From Candidatus Aenigmatarchaeota archaeon (GTDB taxonomy: Archaea; Aenigmatarchaeota; Aenigmatarchaeia; Aenigmatarchaeales; JACQIB01): DNA of 64,000 nucleotides. This document shows, one piece after another, positions 5,016 through 52,257 of this stretch (position 1 is the first letter of the stretch; each line of letters starts with the position of its first letter). The notes beneath the pieces were generated by a model that was not told where the DNA came from, ran no database searches, and worked only from the letters and a program-made list of their open reading frames with translations. Location: NCBI GenBank assembly GCA_016198755.1, contig JACQIB010000005.1, forward strand, positions 64,001 through 128,000, in the 5' to 3' direction. The translations under genes were made by a program, and so were the position numbers.

Positions 5016-6458
5016 TTACTCTTTCTTTTCATCATCAACTGGTGTTGATGTAACCTCTATTGGCTTATCTTCTGCTTTATCTGGAAGAATATATGTGAAA
5101 GAATCTGCGGCACCCTTTCCACCCTGAACTTTTGTCTTGCCCCTGAAAAATTTCCCAATTGGAAGAGAACCAGGTTTTAGCAACTCGGCTCTTTTCTGTA
5201 TATAGGCAACAACAGTGGCATCTGTAAGCTCCCCGGCTTTTCTCGCCTCGTCCACATCCCTTCTTGCCTGATCAAGTGTTAATCTCAACCCTGCAACATC
5301 GCGACCAACTTCATCTAACATACCCTGCTTTACAGTAGCATCATTTTCTGCAGCCTCTGCCCTCTTTCTCAGCTCTTCAACCCCTATTAACAGGGTTTCC
5401 CTGTCTGAAGGTGCTGCCTGAGCTTGCTGTACTATTTTATCTGCCTCTGCTTTCACTCTTTCTGCTGCAGCTGCCCTTTCCTCTGCAGTTTTCATGGCAG
5501 CCTCTAAAACTTCCCTCCTCCGCTGCATATCACCCTCCTGATCAACAATTCTTGCTTCCCTCAGATTGAGCGCATCTGCTATTGCTTTGTATTTTACAGA
5601 ATTTTCATCTTCAACAGCCTTGAGACCAGCCTTTTCTTTCTCCAACGCCAGCCTTTGCTGTTCTATGTCTTTTTCTTTCCTGCTAACCATATCAAGTTCA
5701 GCTGCAAGAGCAGCAGTTCCAAGCTGCCTCTCCTTTTCTCTATCTTGATATGCTGTCTCTTCTGTCCTTAGCTTGTCATCCCTTTCTTTCAAACTATCTT
5801 CAAGCTCTCTGTATTGAACCCAGCGCTGCCCCAGTTCCTTTGAACTTGCATCTATATCTGTTCTCTTGGCTTCTAGAGCTCTTGAAGTAGACTCAAATGT
5901 TTCTTTTGCCTGCTTAAGTTCTTCTTTCTCCTTATCAATCCTAGCTCTTTCTTCATCTATTTGTGCCTTTTCCCCAGCCAGTTCATTGTCTTTCTCTTTC
6001 ATGCGCGCTGAGGTCTCTGTATTAAACCTTATGTGCTCCTGAAGTTCTGACATTTGTGAATCATACCTGACTTCCCTTCCTGTTAGATTTTCCTCCCTTG
6101 CTCTCAAATCCCTCTCAACACTTCTCAGATGATTCTGGGCTGCCTTTATCTCATCTTCTCTGGCTTTAACTCCATACCTGCTGTTCTTTAGAACATCTGC
6201 TTCCTCTCTGAGTGCAGCAGCATATTCCCTCAAAAACCAGGTTGTTGCATCCCTTTCTAAATTATTTCTTGTTTCTTGGGTACCTATGGGATCTGCAGTC
6301 CTGTAGTGAGAAATAATATCAGCAAACTGCCTATATGCCTTATCACTTAAGCCCTCTACTTCCGGAAGTCCAAATTTTGATGTTATATGAGTGTAAAGGC
6401 TTTGAGCTGCTTTTATGTCCTTTTCTGCTCCGGCTGCCCTTGGATCATCATTTATCAT
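5016..6458 (-). CDS. Long coiled-coil protein with a novel N-terminal domain
   Basis: 480-aa ORF; roughly residues 80-410 are E/K/R/A-rich heptads; own TATA box and SD. Confidence 0.85.
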   Translation of the reverse strand: MINDDPRAAGAEKDIKAAQSLYTHITSKFGLPEVEGLSDKAYRQFADIISHYRTADPIGTQETRNNLERDATTWFLREYAAALREEADVLKNSRYGVKAREDEIKAAQNHLRSVERDLRAREENLTGREVRYDSQMSELQEHIRFNTETSARMKEKDNELAGEKAQIDEERARIDKEKEELKQAKETFESTSRALEAKRTDIDASSKELGQRWVQYRELEDSLKERDDKLRTEETAYQDREKERQLGTAALAAELDMVSRKEKDIEQQRLALEKEKAGLKAVEDENSVKYKAIADALNLREARIVDQEGDMQRRREVLEAAMKTAEERAAAAERVKAEADKIVQQAQAAPSDRETLLIGVEELRKRAEAAENDATVKQGMLDEVGRDVAGLRLTLDQARRDVDEARKAGELTDATVVAYIQKRAELLKPGSLPIGKFFRGKTKVQGGKGAADSFTYILPDKAEDKPIEVTSTPVDDEKKE

Positions 6459-6489
6459 ATTTTATCACTGAATATTAAAACTTAAATAC
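6456..6489 (-). promoter_or_regulatory. Duplicated promoter/start region, copy 1 (TATTTAA box, GTGAT SD, ATG)
   Basis: catattttatcactgaatattaaaacttaaatac matches 8078..8111 at 32/34 nt. Confidence 0.8.
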
Positions 6490-8080
6490 TACCCCATCTT
6501 GCATATGGATCATCATCTGTTGGATTAATCTCTCCTGGTGTTCCACCGTTTCTTTTATGAGGCACTACAGCTGGTTCTACTTCCAACGCTGGCTCCTGTT
6601 CTAAAGGCGGAGCTGATGGTGGCTCAGCGAAAGATACTGGTGGATATGGAACCGATCTTGGTCTAAATGGAACTGGTCCTGGTCTCCATGCTGGAGGTGG
6701 CTGTATAGGCCGTGAACCCTCTTCTACTTGTCCAAATGAAGCAGGCAATGGCTCCTCTCTTCCAGCTCGTTCCCCTTCTCCATATGCCCATGGTGGAGGT
6801 GGTGGAACAGGAGATTGTACTGGTTCATCATACTGAGATGGTGAATATGGTGGTGGCTCTCGAGGAGGAGCGAGTAATGGAATTGACTGTACTGGAGATT
6901 TTGGAGTCTCCGGAGGCGGAGGAATTGGTGATTTGCGTCGTGATAAATAGTATCCTAAACCAGCTCTCATTCTCCCTGCCCCGACTCCCATTTTATATAG
7001 GCCATCACTTGCATACCTTCTAGCAGACCTTCTTGCTGATTTTGCAGGTTTATTTGCTTCTTTTACACTATTCGCTAAGCTCTTTATCCCATCTAAAGTG
7101 TCAATCTCTTTGTTAGCCCATTCTTTTATGCGTTCCAATCTATTATTGTCTCCATAAAAAATAACACGATATCCAGGAGGAGAATTTTTGGAGATATCCA
7201 TCGGAACTTTTCCTTTGAGACTCGAAATTGTTGTTACTGCCCTTTCATCAATTGCAGTGCTATTACGTATCAGGTGATTTACTGCAGCCTCTACTTGGGC
7301 TTTGCTGCCGTAAAATCTTCCTCTCATAACTCTGCCTGTTTTAAGAGGCTTTGTAAGATCTGTTTTTTTCATTAAATATTCAGCAGCTCCGGATTTTGGT
7401 ATTAGAATAGCTGACCCGTCACTTCCGTAGTATGCGTTTGCTTCCCTACCTGGTTGAAATTCATAAGTAACTTTTTCTTTCTTAGGCTTTTGTGTTTTTC
7501 CAGGTTTAATTACTATAACAACCTCATCATCCGCATTTCCGGATTGAGGAATACTGTTACCTGACTCCCGTATATTAAATACCCCACCAATTGGAGTATA
7601 AGGCGATTCCCCTCTGAACCAACTTCTTGGTTTTCCGGTAGTAACTGGTGCTTGTCCGAAAGAAGATGGAACTGTTATGGGCGGAACTCCAGTAACCGGT
7701 TCATCTGAACCAGATGCACCGCTGGGTGAAAGATACCCAGGTCCTTTAACATCCGGAGTAGAAGAAGGTGGTGACGCTGTAGAACTTCCCCCAGCCCTCG
7801 ATTTGGCTGGATTATAAAAAGTATCCATAAACCAGTTGTATGCTGCATCAGCCTCTTCCCTTGAAATTTCTTTGAATCTTCCAGGATCTCCCATTACACG
7901 TGTGTCGACCCTTCTTACAGTAGATGATAATACAGCTAAAACGTCTTTCTCAGGTATTCCGTATTCTTTAACATCGCTCTCAAGAACTCCTGCCCTCCTT
8001 AATATGGATTTGTATAGAGTTCTGGCTCCCTGCATATCTGGACTTTCTGGAGGCGGTGTTGGTTTTTTGAATATTCCCAT
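6482..8080 (-). CDS. Pro-rich multidomain hypothetical protein (532 aa)
   Basis: Long ORF with two globular-looking segments separated and followed by P/S-rich low-complexity regions. Confidence 0.85.
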   Translation of the reverse strand: MGIFKKPTPPPESPDMQGARTLYKSILRRAGVLESDVKEYGIPEKDVLAVLSSTVRRVDTRVMGDPGRFKEISREEADAAYNWFMDTFYNPAKSRAGGSSTASPPSSTPDVKGPGYLSPSGASGSDEPVTGVPPITVPSSFGQAPVTTGKPRSWFRGESPYTPIGGVFNIRESGNSIPQSGNADDEVVIVIKPGKTQKPKKEKVTYEFQPGREANAYYGSDGSAILIPKSGAAEYLMKKTDLTKPLKTGRVMRGRFYGSKAQVEAAVNHLIRNSTAIDERAVTTISSLKGKVPMDISKNSPPGYRVIFYGDNNRLERIKEWANKEIDTLDGIKSLANSVKEANKPAKSARRSARRYASDGLYKMGVGAGRMRAGLGYYLSRRKSPIPPPPETPKSPVQSIPLLAPPREPPPYSPSQYDEPVQSPVPPPPPWAYGEGERAGREEPLPASFGQVEEGSRPIQPPPAWRPGPVPFRPRSVPYPPVSFAEPPSAPPLEQEPALEVEPAVVPHKRNGGTPGEINPTDDDPYARWGSI

Positions 8081-8111
8081 ATTTTATCACTGAATAGTAA
8101 ACCTTAAATAC
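8078..8111 (-). promoter_or_regulatory. Duplicated promoter/start region, copy 2
   Basis: catattttatcactgaatagtaaaccttaaatac. Confidence 0.8.
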
Positions 8112-31716: not shown

Positions 31717-33720
31717 CTAAATTTTCTGCACAAAACCTGTGCGCGGCTCGAAAATCATACCCTCCCTCTTAAGCCTCTGTAAAAGTTCCTCGAAATCCTT
31801 CTCGTTTATACCTTCATCCTCTGCTGCAGCAAGCAGCTCTTCTTTTGGAATCTGCTTTCCTAAACTCTTTTCAAGCTTTCCAATCAAATCCAGTATCATT
31901 GTTATCTTTGTCCTTTGGGAAGCCGGTGTTCCTCCTTCCAGCTTATCCACATCAAGCTTTCCTGTCTCATAATCATATCCAAGCTGTTTTATTGATTCCT
32001 GCATCACATTTATTGCTCTTTCAGCATCCTGAACTTCAACTGTTGGAGATAGCCTTATTTTAGCTGAAGCTTCTGAAAGCCTGATTAATGCTTCGTTCTG
32101 CCTGAGTGTTATTGCTACTGTGTTTGAGCCTGAGTATAGACTTCTCATTGTCAGATAAAACTGCTTTAACCTCTCAGCTGCTTCGCGTGTCATTATTGGA
32201 TGGGCATTTTTCCTGCAATAAGCTATGTATTTTCTCAAAAACTCTGGCTTGATTAGAGGTTCTACTTTTTCTGGTGCAAGCCTTGTTTCCAGAATATGCG
32301 CAGCTAACTTTTCATCCTTTACTGGATCTGGAATATCTCTCAGGGCAAACTTTAGGTCAAACCTGCTTAACAGAGTATCTGGTATTGTTAATTGTTCAGC
32401 TATAGATTTGTATGGATCAAATCTGGAAAATTTTGGATTTGCACCAGCCAATACAGAAACCTGAGCTGGGAGCGTTGCAACTATAGAGGCTTTTGCTATG
32501 CTCACAGTCTGCTGTTCTAAAGCCTCGTGCATAGCAACCTGATCCTCAACTGAAATTTTGTCAAACTCATCTATTGCCATTATTCCCTTATTTGCCAGAA
32601 CCATTGCGCCTGCTTCCAGCACCCAGCCTCCCATTAACTCCTCATCTTTGACTACAGTCGCGGTCAGACCAGCGCCAGTTGCACCCCTTCCTGAAACATA
32701 CTTGCCGCGCGGGATTATTGAGGAAGTGAGCTTTAGCAATTGGGATTTTGCCACTCCCGGATCTCCTAAAAGCAAAACGTGAATATCGCCCCTGATTTTT
32801 GTACCATCAGGGAACTTATGCCTGACACCCCCGAAAAGTTGCAATATTATAGCATCCTTAATCTCACCCAGACCGTATATCGAGGGAGCAAGAGACTCGC
32901 GCAGCTTTTTATAAATCTCCGGATCTGCTGCAAACTCCATTATCTTTTCCTCATCCTGAGCTGTTGTGTTTACCTCTTCCCACTCTACATCAGTTGATTC
33001 AATGGAATTTGTTTCTATGAACATCTCCATTTGAGTTTTCATTCTTCCCTTTATCATCCTATGCAGCTCTTTTACAATCCCTACAATCTTCAGCCTGTTG
33101 CCAGGGTCTGTTTTCCTCTGCATATCAGGAGTTGTCAGATCCTCTTTCATGGAAATATTTACTTCACCTGGCCTTTCCCCGCTTGCTGTTTCATAAGGCT
33201 CCTCCAAAGTTATAACACGGGAATCATACAGCTTCCTGTCCACCATATCAAACCTTGCTTTTATTCCGCATTCAGGACAGGCTACTGGGCCGTTTAACAT
33301 CCTTTCCTTCTGCTCAACACCAAATTTTGCAGTACATTCAGGGCACTGGAAAATAGCTATTGAAATTTCCGGCCTGACCTCAGAAGCTCTCCTTACTGTA
33401 CCTTCTACAGCAATAAATTTCCCTATATGTTCTGAACGTAAGCTGCGTATCCTTATTGTTGCTGATTCCGGCAAATTAATGAACCTGACTTTAAACCCTT
33501 CTGTTCCTTCAGGAACATCAAGCTCGCGCAGGGCAAAGTTTACAATGGGCAGGAGCCTTTCTGGTTCGTTTAAAAGCTTGTCAGCCAGTTCAGGATCAAA
33601 TTTATCCAGATTTGAAAAATCAACTGCAATAGATTTTTTTCCTTCCCTTGTAGCTGTCAGTAAATCCTGCTCATAAAACTGCCTTAAAAATTCCTCAAAT
33701 CTTTCCTGTTCATTATCCAT
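31717..33720 (-). CDS. mcm: MCM replicative helicase (no intein)
   Basis: C4 zinc finger; GDPGVAKSQ; IDEFDK; arginine finger LLSRFD; TLRQNEA. Start MDNEQ at 33720. Confidence 0.97.
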   Translation of the reverse strand: MDNEQERFEEFLRQFYEQDLLTATREGKKSIAVDFSNLDKFDPELADKLLNEPERLLPIVNFALRELDVPEGTEGFKVRFINLPESATIRIRSLRSEHIGKFIAVEGTVRRASEVRPEISIAIFQCPECTAKFGVEQKERMLNGPVACPECGIKARFDMVDRKLYDSRVITLEEPYETASGERPGEVNISMKEDLTTPDMQRKTDPGNRLKIVGIVKELHRMIKGRMKTQMEMFIETNSIESTDVEWEEVNTTAQDEEKIMEFAADPEIYKKLRESLAPSIYGLGEIKDAIILQLFGGVRHKFPDGTKIRGDIHVLLLGDPGVAKSQLLKLTSSIIPRGKYVSGRGATGAGLTATVVKDEELMGGWVLEAGAMVLANKGIMAIDEFDKISVEDQVAMHEALEQQTVSIAKASIVATLPAQVSVLAGANPKFSRFDPYKSIAEQLTIPDTLLSRFDLKFALRDIPDPVKDEKLAAHILETRLAPEKVEPLIKPEFLRKYIAYCRKNAHPIMTREAAERLKQFYLTMRSLYSGSNTVAITLRQNEALIRLSEASAKIRLSPTVEVQDAERAINVMQESIKQLGYDYETGKLDVDKLEGGTPASQRTKITMILDLIGKLEKSLGKQIPKEELLAAAEDEGINEKDFEELLQRLKREGMIFEPRTGFVQKI

Positions 33721-33917
33721 TTTCCCACCCAAAAAGAGTTGGAGAGAATAGAATTTCCAAAGGTTAAATAGCTGAATGGAACTGAGAAAAAGTGAATCCA
33801 TGGGAAATTTTTTCTTTAACCTAAGCTTCCAGTGGGCAGGTAAACTGCTCAACAGAAAAGTTCTTAAACCTACCTACGGGAAAGAAAGTATTAATTCTAG
33901 ATTTGAGAATTTATTCC

Positions 33918-34325
33918 ATGGCTGTGGGGGCTGCAGAAGGGGTAAGAGAGGTGGTGGATGTTGATTTTTTAGCTGTTGCTATAGAACAACCAGTACTATT
34001 GGCTCTTATGCTAGATCTTAATGGCCGGAGACCGATGGATAGGGGTGCTTATGGAACTGCTTTCACATCAAGATACAACAAAGAGCATCAACCCCCTACT
34101 ACACAACAATACGTGGATGGTGTAATAGGAATTCTGGTTGAGAGAGGTATTGTTGGAACAACTCCAACAATTGATGGAGAAGATGTTTATGTCAATAAAG
34201 GACAACAGGCTCTGTTCGCTGTGCTTGGAAAATACAAAGTTGAAAGTGGTTGTGTTATTACAAAACCCAATGGACATTCAACACCGAGAAGCCAGCTACC
34301 TATTTTTGAACAAAAACAAACTTAG
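33918..34325 (+). CDS. Hypothetical protein, possibly winged-helix-like
   Basis: ATG at 33918; the stop lies inside repeat copy 1. Confidence 0.65.
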   Translation: MAVGAAEGVREVVDVDFLAVAIEQPVLLALMLDLNGRRPMDRGAYGTAFTSRYNKEHQPPTTQQYVDGVIGILVERGIVGTTPTIDGEDVYVNKGQQALFAVLGKYKVESGCVITKPNGHSTPRSQLPIFEQKQT

Positions 34326-34378
34326 CTCTGTATTATTTTTTTATTAAGATTCTTCAGCCTCTTATCTACCTTTACAAC
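34309..34378. repeat. Direct repeat copy 1 (duplicate of the tbp 3' end and flank)
   Basis: Near-identical to 34983..35051 (2 substitutions, 1 extra T). Confidence 0.92.
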
Positions 34379-34394
34379 GACCCGTCTTATATGC

Positions 34395-34661
34395 TTAATT
34401 CCTTCTGAGCTTTTTGTATACTACGCTCCTATGATCTACTAACCTAACAAATATTTCCCTTTTTGATTCCTCTATATCCAATATAACCCTATAGTCACCA
34501 ACCCTTAGCTTATACCCGTTGTCTCCGGCTAAACGGGAAACGAAGATATGTGGGCTTTCTTTTAGAGACTCTATTTTAAGAAATATTCTTCTCGCAAGAA
34601 TATGCTCCAATTTTCTCATTTGTTCCAGAGATTTCGGATCCCACAATATTTTATATGCCAC
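34395..34661 (-). CDS. relE: RelE/ParE family toxin
   Basis: YKILW...RRIFLKIESL...YKLRVGDYRVI...VDHRSVVY. Confidence 0.9.
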   Translation of the reverse strand: MAYKILWDPKSLEQMRKLEHILARRIFLKIESLKESPHIFVSRLAGDNGYKLRVGDYRVILDIEESKREIFVRLVDHRSVVYKKLRRN

Positions 34662-34683
34662 AAGAATATTGCTGTCCGCTCCC

Positions 34684-34881
34684 TTATAAGAATTCCCTTC
34701 TGACAGCTTCGTGTTCTGTAAATTCGCTCTTCTCTCTCCTTCTGGACTCCGCTAATAGCCTTTTGGCGTGGCCTGACAACTCTATTTCATCTTCTATTAC
34801 CATTCTAAGCTCCTCAACATTCTCCTTTAACGACAGTATATCCTTGTGCATGTGCTCTAAAGATAGCTGTTGGGTTTTCAT
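34684..34881 (-). CDS. Putative antitoxin of the RelE toxin
   Basis: Small acidic protein directly upstream of relE; EFTEHEAVRREF tail. Confidence 0.75.
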   Translation of the reverse strand: MKTQQLSLEHMHKDILSLKENVEELRMVIEDEIELSGHAKRLLAESRRREKSEFTEHEAVRREFL

Positions 34882-34925
34882 AATAAAGAGTTGTTTTTTA
34901 TAACTTATAAGGCTTTGCCTGTTCA

Positions 34926-34968
34926 AAGGTTCTTCGGCCTTTTATCTACCTTTACAACAGCGCGCTCA
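34926..34968. repeat. Partial third copy of the tbp 3' segment
   Basis: aaggttcttcggccttttatctacctttacaacagcgcgctca matches 35019..35061 with 3 mismatches in 43 nt. Confidence 0.88.
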
Positions 34969-34982
34969 GATACCCGCATTTT

Positions 34983-35051
34983 AACAAGAACAAACTTAGC
35001 TCTGTATTATTTTTTATTAAGGTTCTTCAGCCTCTTATCTACCTTTACAAC
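34983..35051. repeat. Direct repeat copy 2 (native tbp 3' end)
   Basis: Encodes VVKVDKRLKNLNKK-stop on the minus strand. Confidence 0.92.
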
Positions 35052-35549
35052 AGCGCGTTCAACATCGGCTATGCTTCTGCCTCCAGTGCAAATAACTTTT
35101 CCTGAACCAAACAACAAAAAGGTCACTTTAGGATCGTCCATTCTGTAAACCAATCCTGGGAATTGTTCAGGCTCGTATTCTGTGTTTTCTAAAGTGAAAG
35201 CAATATCATCTAAATTTAATTCCCCTTCAATTTTTGCAGAAGCAACAATATTTTCCAGCCTTACAGTATAGTTGGAAGGTATCCTTATGCCAAGTTTTCT
35301 CATTTTTCCAACTATTTTAGCTATGACTTCCTTTGATTCCTTTGGACTTTTTGCACCTGTACATACAATCTTTCCTGAAGAAAAAATCAAAGCTGCTGCT
35401 TTCGGCTCTTTCATTCTCAAAACCACTCCAGGAAACTGTTCAGGCTCGTACTCTATCCCTTCCAGTCCAGCCACAACCTTTTCAAGCTTTACTTCAGTAT
35501 TCAAGTTAGCAGAAGCCACAACGTTCTCAATTTTTATTCTATAGGCCAT
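35007..35549 (-). CDS. tbp: TATA-box binding protein
   Basis: Two repeats of ENxVAS...YEPEQFPG...LxFxSGKxxCTG. Confidence 0.97.
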   Translation of the reverse strand: MAYRIKIENVVASANLNTEVKLEKVVAGLEGIEYEPEQFPGVVLRMKEPKAAALIFSSGKIVCTGAKSPKESKEVIAKIVGKMRKLGIRIPSNYTVRLENIVASAKIEGELNLDDIAFTLENTEYEPEQFPGLVYRMDDPKVTFLLFGSGKVICTGGRSIADVERAVVKVDKRLKNLNKK

Positions 35550-35634
35550 TTTAGAACCCCTTTCAAGCTTAGGGTATTTATAAAGGAGGGGGTATTTAAA
35601 TACCTTTTTAAAGGCCTGCAGCGCAGGTTTTCGA

Positions 35635-36321
35635 ATGAAATGCGCAGCTTTGTTTTCGGGAGGAAAGGACAGCACACGGGCAATTTACTTGGCACAGAAA
35701 GCTGGGCACGATGTGGTTGTTTTGTTAACAGTTTTCAGTCAAAACGAGGAAAGCTATATGTTCCATACATGCAACATTGAGCTGAGCAAATTGCAAGCTC
35801 AGGCTATGAAACTGCCGCAGCTTGTTGCAGAAACTGAGGGAAAAAAGGAGGAAGAACTGGAGGATTTGGAAAAACTAATTGCAGAAGCCAAAAATAAGTT
35901 TGGTATAGAGGGTGTAGTTTGCGGGGGTTTGGCTTCTGTTTACCAAGGGAGCAGGATTGAAAAGATTTGCAAGGGATTGAAACTGGAAATGTTAGCTCCT
36001 TTGTGGTGTATCCCTGCTGAGGAACACTTGAAAGGATTATTGAGAGAAGGGTTTAAGGTTATTTTTACTGGAGTTTTTGCTGATGGGTTGGGAAAAGAGT
36101 GGTTAGGAAGGGAACTGGATGAGAAAGCTGTGCAGGAGCTTTTGGAACTGGAAAAAAAGAAGGGAGTTAGCCCAGTTGGGGAGGGGGGAGAATTTGAGTC
36201 TGCTGTTCTGGATTGCCCTCTTTTTAAAGGGAAAATAAAAATTGTTGAATCTGAACCCAAATGGGAAGGTTTATCTGGAAAATTACTGATTAAGAAAACA
36301 TATCTTATTTCTAAGCCTTAA
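35635..36321 (+). CDS. dph6: Diphthine--ammonia ligase family PP-loop ATPase
   Basis: FSGGKDS, SYMFH, PLW, GEGGEFES. Confidence 0.88.
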   Translation: MKCAALFSGGKDSTRAIYLAQKAGHDVVVLLTVFSQNEESYMFHTCNIELSKLQAQAMKLPQLVAETEGKKEEELEDLEKLIAEAKNKFGIEGVVCGGLASVYQGSRIEKICKGLKLEMLAPLWCIPAEEHLKGLLREGFKVIFTGVFADGLGKEWLGRELDEKAVQELLELEKKKGVSPVGEGGEFESAVLDCPLFKGKIKIVESEPKWEGLSGKLLIKKTYLISKP

Positions 36322-51646: not shown

Positions 51647-51982
51647 TTACTCTATTAATTTATAGATAATATGTCTTATTTTATTAAAAGTTTCTATTTT
51701 AATTTCTCCAATTTTTAACTTAATAAGAGATTTGCTTATGCTGAAAATTCTGTCAACCTTAACTTTGCTATCTGTGATTAGCCTGCCAGTTTCTAGGTCT
51801 TTATTTGTTATTAAAAGTGTGTGTTCCCTTATTTGTATATTTGTTGTCATGGGGACTACTATTATATCATCAAATTTTGAATTGTAATTGTTATTCGAGA
51901 GTACTATAACAGGCCTTACCTTAGAGGTTTTCATATCAGAAAATGGAAAAGATAATAATACTATATCCCTTTGCGAGACCAC
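51647..51982 (-). CDS. mazF: PemK/MazF toxin
   Basis: DIVLLSFPFSD...KVRPVIVLS...VPMTT...IG. Confidence 0.9.
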   Translation of the reverse strand: MVSQRDIVLLSFPFSDMKTSKVRPVIVLSNNNYNSKFDDIIVVPMTTNIQIREHTLLITNKDLETGRLITDSKVKVDRIFSISKSLIKLKIGEIKIETFNKIRHIIYKLIE

Positions 51983-52257
51983 TTCTTACCACCTTTTAAG
52001 TAGAGATTCCATATTTCATCCTCTTTGTTGTTCCACAACGCCTTGACAGATAGTTCGGCAGCCTTTTGTATATCCTCAAAAGTATCTATTTTCCTAATTG
52101 CTATTTCTGGTTTTTCTAATATAATATTTTTATCTTTACTTATCAATAAAAGCTCATCGCCTTTTTTAATTCCAAACTCTCTCTGTATTATTTTAGGTAG
52201 AGTTATCTGGCCTTTAGATGATACTTTAATCGAACTTATTGTAGGCAACCTTTTCAT
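51961..52257 (-). CDS. AbrB/MazE-type antitoxin
   Basis: KVSSKGQITLPK.I...GIKKGD; tail LWNNKEDEIW. Confidence 0.88.
   Translation of the reverse strand: MKRLPTISSIKVSSKGQITLPKIIQREFGIKKGDELLLISKDKNIILEKPEIAIRKIDTFEDIQKAAELSVKALWNNKEDEIWNLYLKGGKKWSRKGI

Follow-up and report, generated by a model that had tools for sequence, protein, structure and literature searches.

A RelE/ParE toxin-antitoxin operon between copies of the tbp gene end in an aenigmatarchaeal genome and the same layout in related archaea

Results and Discussion

Genes at the tbp locus

The window analyzed here is a stretch of 64,000 nucleotides (nt) from a Candidatus Aenigmatarchaeota archaeon, corresponding to G000:C3:64001-128000 of the draft genome G000. 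This genome is metagenome-assembled (890,842 nt, 6 contigs, 89% complete, approximately 40% G+C), and the gene content of the window, with genes for the TATA-binding protein (TBP), MCM and diphthamide synthase, is archaeal. Between tbp and mcm, the window harbors a small type II toxin-antitoxin operon that is bracketed by copies of the 3′ end of tbp. As shown below, this locus is a member of a recurrent and under-described kind of insertion, for which a mechanism can be proposed; about a fifth of the RelE/ParE modules in related archaea show the same layout (18/86). On the minus strand, tbp is followed by repeat copies C and B, a spacer of approximately 35 nt, an open reading frame (ORF) of 65 amino acids (aa), the toxin gene and repeat copy A, after which comes a convergent gene on the plus strand. 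The features are as follows.

35007..35549, minus strand: tbp, TATA-binding protein, 180 aa (Pfam TBP 2.1e-62, two repeats)
34967..35058, no strand assigned: repeat copy C, comprising the real tbp 3′ end (35007..35051), a 7-nt spacer and a diverged 33-nt fragment of the convergent-gene end (34967..34999)
34917..34965, no strand assigned: repeat copy B, a third fragment of the tbp tail that has a stop codon of its own
34882..34916, minus strand: A+T-rich spacer of approximately 35 nt with TATA-like words, the putative cassette promoter (read from the sequence only)
34684..34881, minus strand: antitoxin gene, 65 aa, without known family, predicted to form a complex with the toxin
34395..34661, minus strand: RelE/ParE-family toxin gene, 88 aa (PF05016)
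34293..34385, core 34305..34378, no strand assigned: repeat copy A, comprising the displaced tbp tail, the 7-nt spacer and the real convergent-gene end
33903..34325, plus strand: lineage-restricted gene convergent to tbp, 135-140 aa, with a probable start at ATG 33918
33721..35006, no strand assigned: inserted DNA of 1,286 nt from the tbp stop to the mcm start, containing the convergent gene, the toxin-antitoxin operon and the repeat copies
31717..33720, minus strand: mcm, replicative helicase (Pfam MCM 1.7e-90, together with MCM_N, MCM_OB, MCM_lid and MCM_WH_arc)

The DNA between tbp and mcm is an insertion in comparison to related genomes. In 17 of the 19 loci from relatives, mcm is located directly downstream of tbp on the same strand, with aligned ends that are 59-275 nt apart (ORF gaps of approximately 7-185 nt), as opposed to the 1,286 nt found here. 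The two genes are probably co-transcribed in these relatives, the nearest of which shares approximately 74% nucleotide identity in tbp, and the insert parts them in the genome studied here.

The operon itself is a type II toxin-antitoxin system of the RelE/ParE superfamily, consisting of a predicted toxin and an upstream partner predicted to bind it. The toxin matches the Pfam family ParE_toxin PF05016 (4.5e-7, 30.8 bits against a cut-off of 23), and sequence matches in the PDB include 2khe (3.9e-7) and E. coli RelE 4v7j (1.5e-5). Identity to its nearest database relatives, many of which are annotated at source as Thermoplasmatota proteins, does not exceed 54%, and a search of the viral contig collection for relatives of the toxin yielded a 15-residue match only. 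The 65-aa ORF ends 22 nt ahead of the toxin start within the same operon and has no Pfam match. A model of the complex of both proteins scored 0.86, in comparison to 0.07 for the best of three controls; the mark applied to such models is reached by 51/78 solved complexes and by 2/108 mismatched pairs. The model runs agree in at least 98% of the contacts, and the partner has a predicted local distance difference test (pLDDT) value of at least 87. Since RelE-antitoxin complexes have already been solved, the score may reflect likeness to these.

The convergent gene had originally been described as an ORFan. In line with this, it belongs to no Pfam family and has no match in the 41 genomes of the order, but it is not an orphan in the strict sense, as a search of 5.8 billion proteins revealed one homologue, P0002, with 63% identity, which makes this a real, narrowly distributed gene. 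Pattern searches for the genomic context of P0002 gave 15 genome-contig and 82 metagenome-contig matches, none of which was confirmed. According to the N-terminal extension of P0002, the region at window positions 33721-33902 is conserved in the one known relative. As a side observation, mcm must use this 180-nt region in common with the divergent, lineage-restricted gene.

Three copies of the tbp end

A blastn comparison against the whole genome recovered the two 70-bp repeats of the original prediction at exactly the same coordinates, namely 34309..34378 and 34983..35051, with 95.7% identity over 70 nt (2 mismatches and 1 indel). A repeat search extended this pair, copies A and C, to a direct repeat of 93 nt (34293..34385 and 34967..35058), with the families D2 (49 nt, 92%) and D3 (49 nt, 86%). 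In the repeat unit, the final 14 tbp codons with their stop are separated by 7 nt from the stop and last 11 codons of the convergent gene. Measured from start to start, copies A and C are 674 nt apart, in agreement with the approximately 670 bp proposed for the unit, and the bracketed toxin-antitoxin operon covers 0.58 kb. The third tbp-tail copy that had been placed upstream of the toxin-antitoxin promoter is also present (copy B, 34917..34965). It adjoins the putative cassette promoter and carries the tbp part only, its best 39 nt being 95% identical to copy C and 29 nt being 93% identical to copy A. None of the three copies occurs anywhere else in the 890,842-nt genome as judged by blastn, and the tbp locus is single. 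The alignment of the two flanks of the operon reaches a score of 125, which was equaled by 0/1500 random genome positions.

Copy C holds the true end of tbp, i.e., the stop at 35007..35009 and the 14 codons before it, while copy A overlaps the end of the convergent ORF, the stop and last 11 codons of which lie inside the copy. Read in the tbp frame, copy A keeps the tail up to ..KRLKNLNKK with one synonymous change, and an extra A in an A-run abolishes the stop. Copy B, compared to the real tbp tail, shows 11 identical codons, two synonymous changes and one non-synonymous change (L>P), followed by TGA. Differences between copies A and C are distributed unevenly: 7 mismatches fall into the 33-nt arm of copy C and 2 differences into the 59 nt outside it (Fisher p = 0.009). 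This arm encodes QIPAF followed by a stop and is nearer to the P0002 allele (..QIPTFGQE) than to the end of the genome's own convergent gene (..QLPIFEQKQT). Altogether, the originally proposed arrangement of a minimal cassette (promoter, antitoxin, toxin), bracketed by regenerated and displaced ends of the target gene, was found as described.

A candidate for a fourth, decayed tbp-tail copy between the start of the convergent gene and mcm was rejected, as its best local alignment score of 15 was matched by 162/500 shuffles. A degenerate 33-nt pattern of the repeat had 0 matches in the metagenome contig collection and a 29-nt pattern 0 matches in the viral contig collection. There is no contrast in G+C content between the insert (0.36-0.41) and its flanks, and none of the 6 inverted pairs found forms a terminal inverted repeat at the ends of the unit. 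A scan of the locus for sigma-70-type promoters and terminators, a model that is not applicable to archaea, remained at chance level.

Recurrence of the layout within the genome

Toxin-antitoxin-like pairs of the same genome were picked by eye from 47 adjacent small-ORF pairs, the tbp pair was added, and for each pair the two flanks were aligned to each other, with 1500 random positions as the null for the score. Three of 12 pairs, the tbp pair among them, had flank repeats at p<0.01; one further pair was borderline (p = 0.044) and eight had none. One of the other two positive pairs is a HicA/HicB pair identified by Pfam (G000:C3:3537-3990, within the region G000:C3:3454-4102; locus L035). Here, 59 nt copy the promoter region and the first 8 codons of the downstream 345-aa gene (p = 0.0007), with a single coding difference that is synonymous, and the upstream copy may now drive the operon. 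The other one is a second RelE/ParE operon, with a DUF7557 antitoxin, directly behind aspS (G000:C2:49039-49643; locus L031, 1192-1796). Its flanks carry the AspRS tail as a 26-nt repeat with 22 identical positions (p = 0.005), in which 3/3 coding differences are synonymous, and the toxin ORF runs into the displaced copy and stops there. A toxin-antitoxin pair at aspS was found in 0/12 loci from relatives, in which the C-terminus of AspRS is conserved.

A recombination motif common to the tbp, aspS and HicAB repeats was looked for by eye only, and the likeness between the tbp and aspS tails comes down to similar residues (..RLK..). A MazF/PemK toxin with a MazE-type antitoxin (Pfam; window 51647-52257) showed no significant flank repeat. 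Two further repeats were noticed in this genome. First, a 314-aa gene of the Fic/DOC family is located between perfect 30-nt direct repeats with a spacing of 1,064 nt (G000:C3:245726-246819; locus L036, 2227-3320), and words of the type GGTGACTAC are repeated at both ends of this gene. Second, a 34-nt repeat with 94% identity at window positions 6456-6489 and 8078-8111 precedes consecutive paralogous genes of 480-532 aa and is probably a repeated promoter or leader in a pilus-accessory region.

Recurrence of the layout across the phylum

PF05016 matches are present in 128 of the 301 sampled genomes of the phylum, and two samples of these loci were examined for flank repeats. The first sample comprised 31 RelE/ParE loci (30 matches minus the one from the own genome, plus two from another search), 30 of which could be tested against a null of 2000 random positions; 5/30 had repeats at p<0.01 and 8/30 at p<0.05. 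The second sample was made up of the 60 next-best PF05016 matches (56 testable) with 1500 mismatched flank pairs as null. In this sample, 13/56 loci had repeats at p<0.01, and 10 of these also pass the stricter cut-off of the first sample. HicA loci showed flank repeats at p<0.01 in 4 of 24 testable cases, 3-4 of which share the layout, whereas control loci around the ribosomal protein S28e showed none in either geometry (0/29). The difference between the RelE/ParE loci (18/86) and this control is significant (Fisher p = 0.003). Repeats at L090 and L171 were rejected as target duplications, since they belong to tandem toxin-antitoxin paralogues: L090 (G179:C22, 1092-1861) and L171 (G211:C12) contain paralogous operons with a common promoter and leader, 60 nt of which are identical in L090. 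The repeats at L068, L100 and L140 were rejected as intergenic, and those at L128 and L130 were not counted as target duplications either.

The remaining repeats are ends of neighboring genes, i.e., tails or heads including promoters, or 3′ ends of tRNAs. Tails of co-directional genes are repeated at aspS in G247, at a 78-aa gene and, in two genomes that belong to the same genus, at a gene of 133 aa. Tails of convergent genes are repeated at a glutaredoxin-like gene in two genomes, at a gene that is DUF357-like as judged by its sequence and at a small basic gene, the latter with a perfect 75/75 repeat. Promoters together with first codons are repeated in the case of downstream RFC-like, kinase-like and ATP-cone-like genes, names that were given by reading the sequences without a family search. 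The tRNA 3′ ends belong to a tRNA-Val detected by ARAGORN and to two intron-containing tRNAs detected by Rfam. ARAGORN missed the tRNAs in 3/4 loci; Rfam recovered those of L065 (2018-2140) and L099 (1257-1399), which are 123 and 143 nt long, presumably intron-containing, and have a toxin-antitoxin cassette at each 3′ end, and it recovered none in L141.

The positions of the copies relative to the operons are similar from case to case. The right copy starts between -8 and +11 nt from the toxin stop in 10/13 cases of the second sample, and the left copy, as read from the alignments, ends approximately 24-74 nt before the antitoxin start. Since both copies hug the operon so closely, the units are bare operons. 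In the genus of G081, of which 11 genomes were searched, both the occupied and the empty state of a site were observed: G081 and G149 hold operons with 85% identity between two tails of the glutaredoxin-like gene, and in G187 and G146 the same neighbor gene follows at 20-30 nt from a single glutaredoxin-like tail. The original idea that the cassette moves as a unit therefore gains weight from the recurrence in the genome and the phylum and from this one sister empty site.

There is no one-to-one pairing of cassettes and targets. At aspS, the toxins of G000 and G247 share 38% identity and the antitoxins show no relationship, which rules out that the same cassette occupies this target in both genomes. 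Related cassettes, with 54% and 67% identity, are located at aspS and at a tRNA. These observations argue against a cassette-specific pair of attachment (att) site and integrase and suggest that the recombination depends only on the likeness between the carried end and the chromosome. Of the original prediction of tbp as an att-like hotspot, the repeated use is supported by the three copies; a role of tbp as the att site of an integrase, or mobilization of the cassette by one in trans, is hypothetical.

Divergence of the repeat copies

Among the 15 repeat pairs that cover coding ends, the copies differ by 43 synonymous and 16 non-synonymous codon changes. This is an excess of synonymous changes (binomial p = 1.4e-7) over the 39% expected if the copies had been born identical and one of them had then decayed, an expectation that stems from a rough model of our own in which about 1/4 of random changes are synonymous. 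In addition, displaced copies often retain the stop codon in place. The predominance of synonymous differences indicates that the two copies evolved as functional gene ends in separate lineages before they came together, so that they are diverged alleles and a gene end travelled with the cargo. For the copies at tbp this reading is weaker, yet the diverged 33-nt arm and its likeness to P0002 point in the same direction.

Search for recombinases

The cassette had originally been noted to lack an integrase, and a search for tyrosine recombinases elsewhere in the genome had been suggested. Profile searches of the 89%-complete genome revealed no candidate: the best match to Phage_integrase PF00589 had 12 bits and was below the cut-off, Resolvase PF00239 had no match, and TnpB-type PF07282 had no match over its cut-off. 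Between the repeats there is no ORF besides the toxin-antitoxin pair, and the 1,286-nt spacer contains no integrase fragment. Similarly, no transposase-like ORF is present at the locus, although the DDE families were not included in the search. Features of an integron were not found either, as there are no attC-type repeats, the copies being site-specific ends of tbp and its neighbor gene, and the genome yielded no tyrosine recombinase. The same holds true for 4/6 other genomes of its family, in which tyrosine recombinases were not found. As a separate observation, a 275-aa tyrosine-recombinase gene is located approximately 370 nt upstream of a ParE/RelE toxin gene at L066 (G121:C20:13338-14426), which is the only such neighborhood that was noticed.

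Proposed mechanism and alternatives

The reading that we favor, with moderate confidence, is that a minimal cassette carrying a foreign copy of the target end recombined with the chromosome and did so at least twice at tbp. Such a cassette would consist of the approximately 35-nt promoter, the antitoxin and the toxin and would travel with a copy of the end of the target gene. The carried end would recombine with the chromosomal tbp tail, either through a single crossover with a small circle or through homology-anchored insertion of a linear piece; homology-facilitated illegitimate recombination is a known process. A crossover of this kind would result in the order regenerated end, promoter, antitoxin, toxin and displaced end and would yield copies C and A, leaving tbp and the convergent gene intact and the displaced copy on the far side of the cassette. 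Since no recombinase was found in the cassette or the genome, the joining would be due to the host recombination machinery or to a recombinase supplied in trans. Once in, the addictive toxin-antitoxin pair would resist loss.

The presence of three tbp tails implies more than one event at this site. Copy B might be the tbp tail of an earlier insertion, in this lineage or in the donor, and it is possible, equally well, that it is the scar of an earlier cassette or a tbp tail carried over from an earlier host. The order C-B-operon-A could be explained by a donor which already had the operon behind its tbp, with B as the working tail and an A-like copy displaced, followed by a crossover in the 93-nt segment, and other two-step histories are possible as well.

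Apart from the roughness of the 39% expectation mentioned above, several points weigh against this reading. Two pairs among the 15 cases share a genus each and possibly represent single events; dropping one of each leaves 36 synonymous and 13 non-synonymous differences. For the A/C pair alone the case for alleles is thin, comprising one synonymous change, one indel and the 33-nt arm. Identical stretches in several diverged pairs seem, as estimated by eye, to be no longer than approximately 9-16 nt, which would be little for ordinary homologous recombination and is more in keeping with a site-specific enzyme. Tyrosine recombinases are present in 203/301 genomes of the phylum, and three of the targets are tRNA 3′ ends, the classic target of integrases. 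Approximately 4/5 of the toxin-antitoxin loci are without a repeat. The tbp loci of relatives also lack the convergent gene (41 genomes of the order), and none of these is close enough to serve as a true empty site. Finally, the contigs of four sequencing runs described below contain neither a circle junction nor an empty-site variant, with contigs being known to drop rare variants.

Among the alternatives, a local rearrangement would do without a travelling gene end. In this case, the operon would have been inserted once by illegitimate recombination, and the repeats would have been made in place, through fill-in of a staggered break, template switching or tandem duplication plus deletion, and would have been born identical. 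The 96% identity of the A/C core with its one coding difference and the perfect 75/75 repeat in one relative are in accordance with such a scenario, as is the near-identity of duplication and target in the restriction-modification examples given in the available text of PMC2853133, e.g., 45/46 and 47/47. Moreover, by our own derivation, tandem duplication plus deletion can generate the order C-B-cassette-A. On the other hand, a neutral displaced copy should gain mainly non-synonymous changes, contrary to the ratio found over the 15 pairs; the 33-nt arm of copy C is enriched in differences and resembles another allele; and copy B has a stop codon of its own and two synonymous changes. All things considered, we regard a local rearrangement as unlikely.

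Alternatively, the locus could be what is left of one or several larger elements (virus, plasmid or island) with an integrase that had integrated site-specifically into the tbp tail, everything except the toxin-antitoxin pair and the att repeats having been deleted later. Direct repeats that regenerate the 3′ end of a gene or tRNA are a hallmark of integrases, and small genomes are generally expected to delete non-essential DNA readily; the tRNA targets in relatives and the frequency of tyrosine recombinases in the phylum also speak for this scenario. Nevertheless, it would require, time and again, two deletions that end within approximately 10 nt of the toxin stop and approximately 25-75 nt of the antitoxin start and that spare the att copies, no trace of an integrase was found in the spacer or the genome, and the free combination of cassettes and targets is difficult to reconcile with it. 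This makes an eroded element quite improbable.

Lastly, there is hardly any chance that the three-copy layout is an assembly artefact, i.e., a strain chimera or a collapsed or expanded repeat: though misjoins are well known to arise at repeats and the genome is a draft assembled from a metagenome, single Logan contigs from four separately assembled runs (all from one study that is possibly the source of this DNA and thus not an independent population) each span 33600..35700 with 0 differences at a depth of 11-77, without joints and without an alternative contig over 33600..35090, every gene is intact, and exact matches between copies A and C reach 29 nt at most, which is below the word length of a 31-mer graph and makes such a graph unambiguous. 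The misassembly of the repeat junctions that the original prediction had considered is consequently unlikely.

Extending the cassette reading beyond tbp, one may ask for the nature of such units. It is possible, although we propose this only tentatively and consider it rather doubtful, that ultra-small archaea harbor recombinase-less mobile units of 0.5-0.7 kb which consist of a toxin-antitoxin operon with its own promoter and a conserved host gene or tRNA end of 14-90 nt as the only integration module. These would cycle via small circles, enter new lineages by short homology at the conserved end and regenerate the host gene, with displaced ends accumulating at hot spots like the tbp tail. If true, such units would be a general answer to the question of how solitary toxin-antitoxin modules spread without transposases or integrases.

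Implications

According to the available text of a 2026 study (PMC13617665), it is still unclear how stand-alone toxin-antitoxin modules enter chromosomes. The tbp locus and its look-alikes offer a concrete and testable entry route. The synonymous-rich differences between the copies point to a foreign gene end that is carried along with the cargo. Genes that are essential and conserved, such as tbp, aspS and those for tRNAs, act as landing pads in genomes with little mobile-element machinery, which also bears on gene gain by symbiotic, streamlined archaea. Furthermore, these loci extend long target duplication from bacterial restriction-modification systems to toxin-antitoxin operons and to archaea.

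Comparison with known systems

A literature search, with supplements outside its scope, yielded no description of toxin-antitoxin operons flanked by gene ends or direct repeats in archaea or DPANN. Likewise, Makarova et al. (2009; PMC2701414) make no mention of direct repeats, flanking, integrase, target sites or integrons. The closest known process is insertion with long target duplication, which was described for bacterial restriction-modification systems (Furuta, Abe & Kobayashi, 2010; PMC2853133); in the available text of this study, no archaeal case survived the authors' screen. Within the text available, a review (PMC3874152) ascribes long target duplication to restriction-modification systems only. 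The resemblance to the tbp locus is apparent from the available account: an addictive module without a mobility gene is flanked by genome-unique direct repeats of >30 bp, as found at tbp. Two further features reported there for restriction-modification systems are repeats of variable length, some of which overlap the 3′ end of a neighbor gene, and a repeat that is single at the empty site of a related genome, the latter having been seen here only for the sister case in the genus of G081. In contrast to these systems, the cargo here is a type II toxin-antitoxin operon with a size of 0.5-0.7 kb, the hosts are DPANN-type archaea, and the repeats are gene or tRNA ends that are often diverged alleles and not near-identical. 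Insertion with long target duplication of restriction-modification gene complexes was reportedly described already in 2000 by Nobusato et al. The toxins RelE and HicA cut RNA. For this reason, DNA breakage by a restriction enzyme, as proposed in the accessible text of PMC2853133, cannot apply to the loci described here.

A second point of comparison is provided by site-specific integrative elements that bring along a replacement for the 3′ end of the gene they enter, for example tRNA-targeting elements of archaea and bacteria or phage 21 and e14 in icd. The attL/attR-like repeats, the intact target, the mainly synonymous differences and the tRNA 3′ ends among the targets are shared with these elements. 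Unlike them, the units described here contain no integrase and have a size of approximately 0.6 kb, no integrase was found in the genome, and targets and cassettes do not correspond to each other one-to-one.

Some aspects are also reminiscent of rhs genes, for which C-terminal displacement through circular intermediates was described (PMC2935791, 2009). As far as can be seen from the available text, an incoming end with its cargo recombines in these systems as well, the old end is pushed downstream, arrays of displaced ends arise and no dedicated recombinase is required. However, the exchanged rhs tip is described there as altering the function of the protein and bringing an immunity gene, whereas in the present case the same housekeeping end is restored and the cargo is unrelated to the target.

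Finally, toxin-antitoxin cassettes of chromosomal integrons are similarly compact and promoter-bearing, with repeats starting where the last gene ends. They differ in being bounded by attC and moved by IntI, whereas the repeats found here are host gene ends that differ from site to site.

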